Below, in pieces: positions 46,455 through 49,517 of a DNA stretch of 64,000 nt (the first letter of the stretch is position 1; every line of letters starts with the position of its first letter). Source of the stretch: an uncultured Actinomycetes bacterium (GTDB lineage: Bacteria > Actinomycetota > Thermoleophilia > Miltoncostaeales > Miltoncostaeaceae); contig CAITWD010000022.1 in the NCBI GenBank assembly GCA_903896045.1, positions 4,398-68,397 of the forward strand. The letters run 5' to 3'. The translations under genes and the position numbers were made by a program. A model generated the notes under the pieces. It ran no database searches and was not told the DNA's origin. It worked only from the letters and a program-made list of their open reading frames with translations.

Positions 46455-46896
46455 CCCGGAGGTTGTTGCGCGCCTTTTGGGGCGCACCCCATTTACGGTG
46501 TTCTCCGCTGCGGTAACGTGCCCGGGTGGCGGGCCCGCCGTGCTTGCCAACGAGCCAATTGACCAACATGGACGCCCGTTTCCCACGCGCTATTGGTTGG
46601 CATGCCGTGCGCTCGGCGAGGCGGTGAGTCGGCTTGAGGCAGCCGGCGGGGTACGGATGCTCGAGTCTGACCCGGAGATGTCGCAGCATCTTGCGGATGC
46701 GCACGCACGCCATCGGGCTGCGCATGCTGGGCGCAACATTGGCGGCGTGCGAGATCCTGCGCGCGTGAAATGCTTGCATGCCCATTTGGCATTCGCGCTC
46801 GCCGAGGGTGGGAGCCCAATTGGCGACTGGATTGCCGCGCGCACCGACCTACGGTGGCCAGATGTGTGCTGCGCCACTGTGAGCGAGGGGGTGTGA
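46420..46896 (+). CDS. DUF501 domain protein
   Basis: PFPTRYWLACRAL...VKCLHAHLAFALA pattern. Same position as Rv1025-like genes after ftsB. Confidence 0.8.
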   Translation: MSSCADSRNTADPEVVARLLGRTPFTVFSAAVTCPGGGPAVLANEPIDQHGRPFPTRYWLACRALGEAVSRLEAAGGVRMLESDPEMSQHLADAHARHRAAHAGRNIGGVRDPARVKCLHAHLAFALAEGGSPIGDWIAARTDLRWPDVCCATVSEGV

Positions 46897-47222
46897 CCCC
46901 GGGTGATGCAGAGATTGCGTCGGCCCGCTTTGAGTGGGATGAGGGATTGCGCCGCATCGGAGCTGATGACTCGTCCTCGCGGGCGGCGCGTGTGGAGTTG
47001 TCGTTTGCGGTGGGTGATGAATTGCGCCGCCGACTCGGGATCACCTTCAATATTGCGCAACTGACCGGGGCCTATCAAACCTCGCATGAGTGGTACTTCG
47101 CGCTTGCCGCACGTCTTGCGCCAGGAGACCCGGAGGCATGGGAGCCGTCGATCGCCCTTGATGCCGGGTTTGCGCGGATGGCGCGCCTGGCGACCGACGC
47201 GCCCGGTCGGGGTCGCGGCTAG
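46893..47222 (+). CDS. Hypothetical 109-aa protein translationally coupled to DUF501
   Basis: GTG 46893 overlaps the DUF501 TGA (GTGA). Protein-like composition. No family recognised. Confidence 0.5.
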   Translation: MTPGDAEIASARFEWDEGLRRIGADDSSSRAARVELSFAVGDELRRRLGITFNIAQLTGAYQTSHEWYFALAARLAPGDPEAWEPSIALDAGFARMARLATDAPGRGRG

Positions 47223-48238
47223 TCGCGCAACTGGGGTGGGGCAGGCGCAGTCCAGATCGCAGCAAGAATGGGGTCACTGGTGATCCCGCGGGTCATCAGG
47301 GCGTGAATATCCGGGAGTGCATCTCGGCGCAGAAAAATATGGCGCTGGCCGACGTTCCTTTTTTCTCCCAGCAGCCCAGCACGTAGGAGTGCTTCGATCA
47401 CCATGAGTGCGTCATGGCGTTGATCGGCAGGAACGCCCCGTGAGAGATGGTCAATTGCGGTGTGGTAATTCCTTCCGACCTTTCCCATCCGGAGCAGACG
47501 CTGCAGCATCCGTCGCGCATGCCGCCGCCGCGGGCATGGGTCATCGTCGATTCCGTTTCCGAGCTCATCATCATCGTCGGGAAGCGGATCCCCGGAGAGA
47601 CCCCAATTGCGCAGGTTGCGTTCCATATCTGGGTCACGTGCGTCGATGTCGAGTGGTTGGCCGTGGGCGGCAAGCGCGATTGCCACCTCGACCGGATGCG
47701 CACCGACCGCATGTCCGAGGACCGCGATGCCACTCTGCCCGCGGGCACGCCCAAGATCAATCTCAGCGACCTCTTGGAGTGGATGCGGCAGTGGGGTGAT
47801 GGCAATTCGCGCGGCATCTGGGAGACGTTCGCCAAGCGCGAGCCCGAAGAGATCGGGATCGGCGCCTCGGGCGATCAGCACCGTCCATCCATGCCAATCC
47901 CCACACATCAGCATCTCTGAGTCGGCGCCGACATCAACTGCTGCACCAATTGCCATCACCAGCACACGTGCGGGAGCGGGGGGTGAAAAGCTTTGTGCAT
48001 GCGCGGTTGTGATTGGCAGGATCCATGCCGGGGTGCCATCAACTGTCGCGCCGCTCCACGCCCAGAGCGTCATTGCCCGCCCATGTGTCTCCCGTGCGCT
48101 TGCGGCAAGTGTTTGCGCGATCGCATCATCGTGGTCGCCGCGCTGCCATGCCACGAGGTCGTGGGCGACCTCATCGGGACGACGGGCAAGATCTGCGAAG
48201 GTGACCTCTCGTTGACCCATGCATGCAATGTCGCACAT
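47219..48238 (-). CDS. Hypothetical 339-aa protein, unknown family
   Basis: Long ORF with genome-typical codon bias. Acidic linker DDDDELGNGIDDD, then basic RRRHARRMLQRLLRMGK and a possible winged-helix-like C-terminus. Confidence 0.65.
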   Translation of the reverse strand: MCDIACMGQREVTFADLARRPDEVAHDLVAWQRGDHDDAIAQTLAASARETHGRAMTLWAWSGATVDGTPAWILPITTAHAQSFSPPAPARVLVMAIGAAVDVGADSEMLMCGDWHGWTVLIARGADPDLFGLALGERLPDAARIAITPLPHPLQEVAEIDLGRARGQSGIAVLGHAVGAHPVEVAIALAAHGQPLDIDARDPDMERNLRNWGLSGDPLPDDDDELGNGIDDDPCPRRRHARRMLQRLLRMGKVGRNYHTAIDHLSRGVPADQRHDALMVIEALLRAGLLGEKRNVGQRHIFLRRDALPDIHALMTRGITSDPILAAIWTAPAPPQLRD

Positions 48239-48299
48239 TACGACGCGTTTCGGTGTGCGTCAGTGTCCGTGTAATCTCGCGATCGATATCGATTGCGCG

Positions 48300-48542
48300 T
48301 TACTTCGGCAGTAGCGGCTCGCCACGTTCGTATCGTCGCGCCAGCCAGTCGCGCAACTGCGTGCGCTGTTGTTCATCAAGCCAGTGCGTCAGCACGTGCC
48401 GCAGACGCGTCAGCGCATCTCCGGCACCCGCAAGGGCCTGATTGCGCCCAGTACGCCATGCGATCCATCCCACCAGGTGCTGCGCATCCTCTTCGCTCAA
48501 ATAGAGGCCGCAGAATCGCTCGATGTCGTCAATGGTGGACAT
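48300..48542 (-). CDS. Hypothetical 80-aa helical protein, candidate SOS-regulated
   Basis: ORF MSTIDDIERF...RDWLARRYERGEPLLPK. The LexA-type box ends 16 nt upstream of its ATG. Confidence 0.6.
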   Translation of the reverse strand: MSTIDDIERFCGLYLSEEDAQHLVGWIAWRTGRNQALAGAGDALTRLRHVLTHWLDEQQRTQLRDWLARRYERGEPLLPK

Positions 48543-48558
48543 AGAGCGGTCAGTGTAG

Positions 48559-48572
48559 CGAACATATGTTCG
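48559..48572. promoter_or_regulatory. LexA operator (Cheo/SOS box) CGAACATATGTTCG
   Basis: Exact 14-bp palindrome matching the Gram-positive consensus CGAAC-N4-GTTCG. It overlaps the putative promoter (TACACT -10) of the 80-aa gene. Confidence 0.7.
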
Positions 48573-48606
48573 TCTATGCCTGGATGGGCACTCTCCCCGA
48601 AACGAA

Positions 48607-48634
48607 CTTCACCGCGCCGATGGGCGCGGTGAAG
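48607..48634 (-). terminator. rpoZ terminator hairpin
   Basis: CTTCACCGCGCC-GATG-GGCGCGGTGAAG, a 12-bp perfect stem. On the minus strand it is followed by GTTCGTTTC. It lies 30 nt after the rpoZ stop. Confidence 0.6.
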
Positions 48635-48663
48635 GAACTCCAGGGAACCAGAATCGCGTCGGG

Positions 48664-49197
48664 CTAGGACTCGTCTTCTTCGTCGTCTTCAGCTTCTTGC
48701 TCGGCCAATCCCTCAAGGCTGACATCCAAGAGGTCGTCGCCATCGGCGGTTTCTTCTTCTTCAGCGTCGTCGATGTCGTCGTCGACTGCAGTATCGCCCT
48801 CGAGCACCTGAGCCAGCGCAGGGGTGAGATCGCTGTCGTCGTCTGCGCTGAGCTCGGTTTCATCGTCATCTTCGGTCAAGCTCTCGAGCAAGAGCGTGTC
48901 CTCGAGTGGATCGACGATTGTTGCCGACACGGGCTCCGGCTCGATGTCTTGTCCCTCTGGGTCCCAATGCACGATGACCTCGCCAGCGAGGATCTCTGCT
49001 TCGGCAAGTGCGACCGGGTCACGAGTGATGAGCTCGCCTGCTGCCGGAGGCGGAGCGGACTCCGCGCGCAGCTCCGCCGGGTCGGCGGTCAACCAGAGGG
49101 TGATTTGCCGTGCACGCTTCGAGACCGCGTGAACCAGCGCATACCGTGACCCATCAACGTGTTCCAACGCTTGATCGAGTCGACGTCCGTACAGCAT
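48664..49197 (-). CDS. rpoZ: DNA-directed RNA polymerase subunit omega with long acidic C-terminal tail
   Basis: MLYGRRLDQALEHVDGSRYALVHAVSKRARQI omega core. GGAGGG SD before ATG 49197. About 85-aa D/E-rich tail. Confidence 0.8.
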   Translation of the reverse strand: MLYGRRLDQALEHVDGSRYALVHAVSKRARQITLWLTADPAELRAESAPPPAAGELITRDPVALAEAEILAGEVIVHWDPEGQDIEPEPVSATIVDPLEDTLLLESLTEDDDETELSADDDSDLTPALAQVLEGDTAVDDDIDDAEEEETADGDDLLDVSLEGLAEQEAEDDEEDES

Positions 49198-49298
49198 AGA
49201 AACCCTCCGTCGGTTCAATATCGGGAACAGCCCCGACACGGCATACTAGCTGACATGCAGAGCACCTCTGCATTCGGAGTGCATGGAGGCCTCTGCTA

Positions 49299-49517
49299 AT
49301 GCTCGTACTGACTCGCAAGAAGCATCAGAGCATCATTATCGGAAGTGAAATTGAGATTTCCATTCTTGAGGTGACAGGCGACAAGGTTCGTCTCGGTATT
49401 CAGGCTCCTCGGGACGTGTCGGTGTTTCGCAAAGAGGTGCTGATTGCAATTGGCCTTGACGGGGACGGCAACCTCGCAATTAAGGATGTCACCCAAACCG
49501 ATTCTGAGGCCGCCTAG
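49299..49517 (+). CDS. csrA: Carbon storage regulator CsrA
   Basis: [47 protein letters not shown] is the CsrA signature. GGAGG SD. Confidence 0.9.

Follow-up and report, generated by a model that had tools for sequence, protein, structure and literature searches.

The 64-kb window analysed here, that is, the whole stretch taken from contig CAITWD010000022.1 of an uncultured Actinomycetes bacterium, contains two neighbouring open reading frames (ORFs) on the minus strand: a small gene encoding a protein of 80 amino acids (aa) (48300..48542) and, after a gap of 61 nucleotides (nt), a large gene encoding a protein of 339 aa (47219..48238; coordinates are window positions throughout). An earlier note on this DNA had taken them for a two-gene module under SOS control, placed behind a LexA box and wedged between the eno-ftsB-DUF501 block and rpoZ. 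Its ORF coordinates, lengths and gap are correct, and the flanking genes that it named are confirmed; the order is csrA, rpoZ, the small gene, the large gene, a gene for a 109-aa protein, and the genes for DUF501, DivIC/FtsB, enolase and MazG.

The small gene is preceded by a LexA-type SOS box, the perfect palindrome CGAACATATGTTCG (48559..48572), which is the sole exact match to CGAAC-N4-GTTCG in the window; two further boxes in the window carry one mismatch. On the coding strand, the intrinsic terminator of rpoZ (48634..48607) is followed by the box, 1 nt, a probable -10 hexamer, TACACT (48557..48552), 9 nt and the ATG at position 48542. This layout, in which the box is separated by 1-2 nt from a TAnnnT-like hexamer that stands about 9 nt ahead of the start codon, is found in all 26 of the 26 sequences with an exact box. 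When metagenome contigs were scanned reciprocally, with the small protein as the anchor, 51 loci were obtained, 48 of which include enough upstream sequence; the box is exact in 39 of these 48 and differs by at most one mismatch in 47, always in the layout just described, and the LexA box that had been claimed upstream of the genes is thus genuine and kept in relatives. The GAAC-N4-GTTC core occurs at 77 sites in 1.42 Mb of related DNA, 74 of them directly upstream of small-gene homologues and three elsewhere, an association far above chance. Both the box and the -10 hexamer are conserved in a near relative (L094), and unusual conservation is also seen in the stretch (GnCCGGCCC) that links the hexamer to the small-gene start. 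Furthermore, a distant homologue of the small protein (P0173, AB7V42_03365) is encoded about 628 genes away from a member of the large family (P0090, AB7V42_00225) on the same 1.49-Mb contig, and upstream of it, unlinked to the large gene, stand GGAACACACGTTCG, CTACGGT, 9 nt and an ATG. Because the box and its geometry are kept even at this locus, the box and the small gene form a conserved LexA-type unit that is probably repressed by LexA. The short distance from the box and the -10 hexamer to the start codon implies a leaderless mRNA, and the putative small-gene promoter would therefore be of the leaderless or near-leaderless type. It is shielded from rpoZ transcription by the rpoZ terminator (48607..48634, minus strand), which has a 12-bp stem with nine GC pairs and a T-rich tail.

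By its sequence, the box matches operators that have served in studies of LexA binding in Mycobacterium tuberculosis. One of them, the SOS box of Rv3074, has the core CGAACACATGTTCG, a variant that also occurs in relatives of the window, and is followed by the -10-like element GACATT; the recA SOS box is CGAACAGGTGTTCG, followed by GCTACTGT (PMC8607333, Table 1). The box likewise agrees with the SOS box of actinobacteria as investigated in Streptomyces (PMC9380542). The recA and Rv3074 promoters share with that of the small gene the CGAAC-N4-GTTCG core with a -10-like element immediately after it (PMC8607333), whereas the box in the window would control an unrelated gene and lies close to its start codon. 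A consensus operator thus appears to lie within the promoter and to be conserved upstream of orthologues, which points to membership of the small gene in the LexA regulon.

A further palindrome in the window, TGAACATGTTCA (729-740), resembles a pair of SOS half-sites; its spacer is 2 nt (GAAC-N2-GTTC), and so it is not a canonical LexA box.

Compared with the same gene in L094, the small gene shows 19 synonymous and 2 non-synonymous codon differences, which mark it as a real gene under purifying selection. Its product contains 4 Trp and 10 Arg among 80 residues (isoelectric point (pI) 6.3), and its earlier description as Trp/Arg-rich is accurate. No membrane segment was found in it (the maximum 19-residue Kyte-Doolittle hydropathy is 0.42), and the protein is cytoplasmic and soluble, and probably helical. 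Sequence and profile searches of Pfam, NCBIfam, PADLOC, PHROGs and PDB returned nothing significant for either the small or the large protein, in agreement with the earlier statement that neither can be placed in a known family, and a Pfam scan of all 14 aligned homologues of the small protein gave no match. A profile search of 1.84 billion representative proteins recovered only 48 clusters (at 50% identity) of this undescribed family, each of them built on a single core of about 80 residues. Entries longer than this appear to result from mis-called starts (P0128-P0130, P0133, P0136 and P0179 have start problems), and several of them translate the LexA box itself (EHMF, RTCVRY, ERVFVY). The likenesses that the note had denied were also absent from our searches: neither protein matched imuA, imuB or dnaE2 models in Pfam or NCBIfam; the small protein has neither the membrane segment nor a match to the LysM domain that would recall division inhibitors of the YneA, ChiZ and DivS type; and, with regard to toxin-antitoxin pairs, the PADLOC hits all have E-values of 0.011 or higher and the pair is not conserved. 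Similarly, the Pfam and NCBIfam models of SulA, DinI, YebG and DUF896 (YnzC) gave no match at E <=1 to the small protein of the window or to its 14 aligned homologues.

The large ORF differs from that of L094 by 105 synonymous and 29 non-synonymous codons and is, by this pattern, a real gene. It belongs to a family that is widespread in Thermoleophilia and was found in 425 GTDB species genomes, the best 80 of which were used to compare gene order; these 80 are metagenome-assembled genomes (MAGs) labelled Thermoleophilia, Miltoncostaeales or unclassified Actinomycetota, and a few are labelled Bifidobacterium. The start codon of the large gene is probably not the ATG at 48238 but the ATG at 48220 (Met7), which would give a protein of 333 aa, six codons shorter than called, because a start (ATG or GTG) at the Met7 position is kept in eight of eight loci of the sister clade and the ATG at the 48238 position is absent from four loci (L008, L009, L010 and L012). 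Immediately ahead of this start, a conserved block (48221..48262, minus strand) contains GCGACATT, whose GACATT (48227-48232) is probably the -10 element of a promoter of the gene's own. All eight sister-clade loci show GCGACATT followed by 5-9 nt and ATG or GTG, the window has TAATGTGCGACATT, then GCATGC and then the ATG at 48220, and a C-TA(C/G)nnT element (typically CGCGCTACCGTT) stands 5-10 nt ahead of the large-gene start in 44 of the 80 loci, so that a promoter-like element precedes the start in 52 of the 80 in all. About 45 nt before the large gene are conserved in L094, and the rest of the spacer is not. Thus, the large gene would be expressed from a promoter just before its start codon, which fits the suggestion of the earlier note that it might be separately controlled.

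The element GCTA(C/G)nnT, 5-10 nt ahead of the start codon, recurs at both genes, namely at large-gene starts (L013-L085) and in small-gene promoters, and may be a general signature of leaderless promoters in Thermoleophilia. A different arrangement is seen in a clade in which the large gene starts with GTG (L022, L023, L028-L031, L036, L042-L045, L049, L053, L059, L061 and L066): a GC-rich hairpin follows the rpoZ stop codon and the GTG comes immediately next, with no -10-like motif, which suggests that the large gene is co-transcribed with rpoZ there. Several MAGs of this clade bear the label Bifidobacterium, which looks like a taxonomic mislabel.

The spacer between the two genes also contains a perfect 12-bp palindrome, ATCGATATCGAT (48282..48293), which the earlier note had considered as a possible attenuator. 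The palindrome is present as reported and carries no detectable regulatory signal; it could form a weak hairpin without a U tract, and no terminator-like site was called at it or elsewhere between the genes. The window contains 28 perfect 12-bp palindromes, compared with about 20 in shuffled sequences, and this one is not conserved in L094, the small protein of which is 98% identical. For these two reasons, it was ruled out as a regulatory element and is treated as a chance occurrence.

The positions of the two genes relative to each other differ widely among relatives. In 80 of the 80 loci, where the locus extends far enough, the large gene adjoins a convergent block made up of the 109-aa gene, DUF501, ftsB and eno, and it keeps its place between rpoZ and the eno block with or without the small gene. 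The small gene is found within 8 kb upstream of it in only 21 of these 80 loci and is its immediate neighbour in four; the two are directly adjacent only in L025-27, L085, L098, L094 and the window. The eight closest relatives (63-68% identity) carry the box, the small gene, ogt and the large gene in that order. This ogt, which encodes an O6-alkylguanine methyltransferase, separates the genes in L006-L012, L058, L088, L089 and L108, and is missing from the gap in the window (48239-48299) and in L094. L013-15 and L020 have the order ada, ogt, large gene, and in L013-15 the small gene lies about 20 genes away, beside rpoZ and behind a box of its own. In five loci a gene for a 127-aa protein on the opposite strand stands between the two genes, and in other loci they are separated by 1.5-10 kb that include flagellar genes. 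About 20 loci have neither the small gene nor a box, and there rpoZ is followed directly by the large gene. Conversely, at least 13 small-gene loci with at least 3 kb of downstream sequence have no large gene there; six of these were examined, and in each the small gene stands as a monocistronic unit that converges on fliW and flagellin. A two-gene operon or module would be recognised by adjacency and co-orientation that are kept among relatives and by one promoter common to both genes. These features were not found for this pair, and the proposed two-gene SOS module is therefore not supported: the small gene is usually separated from a large gene that has a promoter-like motif of its own. The co-occurrence of the pair and the box in related genomes, which had been put forward as a check, shows at the loci compared that the box travels with the small gene and not with the pair. 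Of the SOS control proposed for both genes, what stands is the small gene behind its conserved LexA-type box; the large gene is a separate gene.

In the relatives, a fliW-flagellin-flgK cluster lies in the same neighbourhood, between the small and the large genes. The 64-kb window contains no ogt, ada, fliW, flagellin or flgL. The flagellar cluster thus seems to have been lost from its place, or relocated, in the lineage of the window while csrA was retained, and the adjacency of the two genes in the window is best explained by the absence of the genes that intervene in relatives (ogt and the flagellar cluster). A link of the large gene to alkylation repair through ogt and ada was also considered, since about 14 loci have ogt immediately upstream of the large gene; it was not adopted because many other loci have ogt on the opposite side of eno, so that its position looks like neighbourhood synteny.

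The full large protein was modelled with AlphaFold2 from an alignment of 62 sequences, with a mean predicted local distance difference test (pLDDT) score of 92.7 and a predicted template modelling (pTM) score of 0.77. The acidic linker at residues ~221-230 is the only internal block of low confidence, and it divides the model into two domains. The N-terminal alpha/beta domain (residues 1-228, pI 4.6; 47555..48238, minus strand), when modelled alone, reached a pLDDT of 92.5 and a pTM of 0.88. The C-terminal domain (residues ~236-317, pI 11.2; 47288..47533, minus strand), which follows the acidic linker and an invariant DDPCPRRRHARR motif, is modelled with pLDDT >90 as helices 236-250, 262-265 and 271-286 and a hairpin at 290-303, that is, as a basic winged helix-turn-helix. 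When the full model was compared with the PDB by Foldseek, only the C-terminal ~75 residues were matched, and all of the matches are winged-helix proteins (the ArsR-like 3f6v, AspA, TubR, Scc1-C and Z-alpha; probability ~1.0, target-normalised template modelling (TM) score 0.56-0.76, E-value 0.02-0.5). A winged-helix fold is thus assigned to the C-terminal domain of the model, and no specific family is assigned because the E-values are only 0.02-0.5. The winged helix that the earlier note had tentatively read from the sequence pattern is borne out by the model and the Foldseek matches, and the acidic linker and basic stretch that it described are both present. The structural comparison it had recommended was less productive for the N-terminal domain, for which Foldseek found no convincing relative in the PDB or BFVD. 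The top match in both, the Prp/YsxB cysteine protease fold, was rejected: its E-values are 0.1-0.2, its TM scores 0.2-0.43 and its root-mean-square deviations 6-7 A, and it also lacks support from a His-Cys dyad, as the N-terminal domain has no invariant cysteine. Across the alignment of the large family, in which several His and one Cys are invariant, the most conserved stretch is DDPCPRRRHARR followed by the winged helix. Like the ArsR/SmtB, MarR, AspA, TubR and kleisin C-terminal domains, the C-terminal ~80 residues of the large protein form, in the model, a strongly basic winged helix; unlike these families, the protein shows no membership at the sequence level, and its winged helix is C-terminal and follows an acidic domain of 228 residues that has no structural match. 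Because an acidic, unrecognised N-terminal domain is combined with a basic C-terminal winged helix, the large protein is most likely a DNA-binding regulator or a nucleoid-associated protein with a sensor or interaction domain.

The genes that flank the pair are arranged as follows. The 109-aa gene (46893-47222, plus strand) is convergent with the large gene, the 3' end of which overlaps it by 4 nt, such that their stop codons overlap; it has no Pfam match and is conserved together with DUF501, ftsB and eno. On the other side, csrA (49299-49517, plus strand) lies beside rpoZ (48664-49239, minus strand), which encodes an unusually long omega subunit of RNA polymerase (178-193 aa in the window and in L086, L002 and L021). 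The C-terminal extension of this RpoZ is strongly acidic and of low complexity, with runs of D and E, and is kept in relatives. An Rfam scan of positions 46800-49400 found nothing relevant.

In view of this variable gene order, it is likely that the small and the large gene are transcribed independently, as two units that merely happen to lie side by side in the window. Some observations weigh against this reading. In the window the two genes share a strand and are separated by only 61-79 nt with no terminator-like site between them; a distant lineage (L025-27, L085 and L098) spaces them just as tightly; and in about 45% of the loci that are informative, the small gene is found upstream of the large gene and on its strand, a co-oriented placement that could reflect more than inherited gene order. 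In addition, no RecA, LexA or UvrA motif was found in 1.4 Mb of related DNA, and LexA as the protein that would bind the box is proposed from the identity of the motif with that of other Actinomycetota and Firmicutes. The first two of these observations, the 21 of 80 loci with the small gene upstream, and the restriction of named members of both families to Thermoleophilia and related MAGs would suit a true SOS two-gene system, in which both genes are expressed from the SOS promoter and the small protein acts as a LexA-controlled anti-repressor or co-factor of the winged-helix protein, such that the small protein relays the damage signal of LexA to the large protein, which in turn acts on a second regulon. 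LexA-controlled anti-repressors of prophages, such as Tum and Ant, offer a parallel for such a relay. However, a conserved promoter-like motif of its own precedes the large gene; many genomes have the pair split by a gene on the opposite strand or by a cluster of ~10 kb; in at least 13 loci the small gene lies far from the large gene and is monocistronic, and in one genome the two stand ~628 genes apart; many large-gene loci have neither the small gene nor a box within 8 kb; and neither family occurs in phage contigs. Such a two-gene system is therefore unlikely.

A second possibility is that the palindromic box is the operator of a regulator other than LexA, which would place the small gene outside the SOS response. 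The related DNA contains no lexA or recA locus of the class by which the motif could be confirmed, and a literature search for Thermoleophilia together with LexA and the SOS response found no paper. Nevertheless, the 14-bp box falls within the CGAAC-N4-GTTCG consensus of LexA in Actinomycetota and Firmicutes, the variant seen in relatives is the very core of the Rv3074 SOS box (PMC8607333), and the box sits over the promoter as a classical repressor operator does, so that we consider control by another regulator very unlikely. It is scarcely credible, moreover, that the pair is an SOS-controlled toxin-antitoxin, defence or mobile-element cassette. The hits that might suggest one are at chance level, namely DpdF (E = 0.011) and ZorC (E = 0.018) in PADLOC and a single database entry (P0058) that joins a PemK domain to the large protein, whereas no match in Pfam, PADLOC or PHROGs is significant, the genes are not conserved as a pair, both belong to a stable core-genome synteny, and both are absent from viral contigs. 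The absence of both families from the IMG/VR viral contigs likewise argues against a phage origin.

If the two genes are independent transcription units, the following scheme may apply. A LexA dimer bound to CGAACATATGTTCG would block RNA polymerase, because the palindrome fills the spacer of the promoter and touches the -10 hexamer. Upon DNA damage, RecA-stimulated self-cleavage of LexA would free the small-gene promoter, and a leaderless or near-leaderless mRNA would give rise to the small, soluble 80-aa protein, which may then serve as a damage-checkpoint effector by binding to a target in the cytoplasm. Tight repression is implied by the operator, a near-perfect palindrome kept across the class, and is characteristic of effectors that do harm if they are produced in undamaged cells; such tight repression, together with the lack of a membrane anchor, argues for an effector that acts in the cytoplasm. 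The large gene would be transcribed from its own promoter, independently of the small gene. Since no terminator separates the two genes, damage-induced read-through into the large gene is possible in the genome of the window, as a lineage-specific by-product.

What the small protein does can be approached by comparison with other LexA-repressed small effectors, such as yneA of Bacillus subtilis, chiZ (Rv2719c) of M. tuberculosis, divS of Corynebacterium glutamicum, sosA of Staphylococcus aureus, sidA of Caulobacter, and sulA and dinI of Escherichia coli. Like these, the small gene is a short, lineage-limited gene with a consensus SOS box over its promoter, conserved together with its operator, and the strength of its palindromic operator suggests the tight repression seen for SOS checkpoint effectors. 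Unlike YneA, ChiZ, DivS, SosA and SidA, its product has neither a membrane segment nor a LysM domain. To our knowledge, no lineage can do without a damage checkpoint, and the SOS division inhibitors known from Gram-positive bacteria are membrane-anchored; because the small protein is not, our leading guess, a tentative one, is that it is a cytoplasmic inhibitor of cell division or of the cell cycle, and a second guess is that it modulates RecA or LexA. It is tempting to speculate, with some doubt, that it represents a type of soluble SOS checkpoint effector that is new for Thermoleophilia, for example an inhibitor of division or replication with no kinship to SulA or to the membrane-anchored inhibitors of Gram-positive bacteria. 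A less likely variant is that it relays the LexA signal to its winged-helix neighbour and so opens a second tier of the damage response.

A lineage-specific SOS gene whose function can only be guessed is a common result of regulon surveys. What is new here is a conserved, probably LexA-controlled gene of an undescribed family and, as a by-product, a widespread winged-helix protein whose modelled N-terminal domain of 228 residues has no structural relative in the PDB or BFVD. The picture of a two-gene module is corrected, and the winged-helix protein is set apart as worth a study of its own. Thermoleophilia thereby gain a concrete, conserved SOS target, consisting of an operator, a promoter and an 80-residue protein family of about 48 clusters at 50% identity. 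Should the small protein turn out to serve Thermoleophilia as their damage checkpoint effector, the effectors known so far would be joined by a type that is soluble and independent of SulA.

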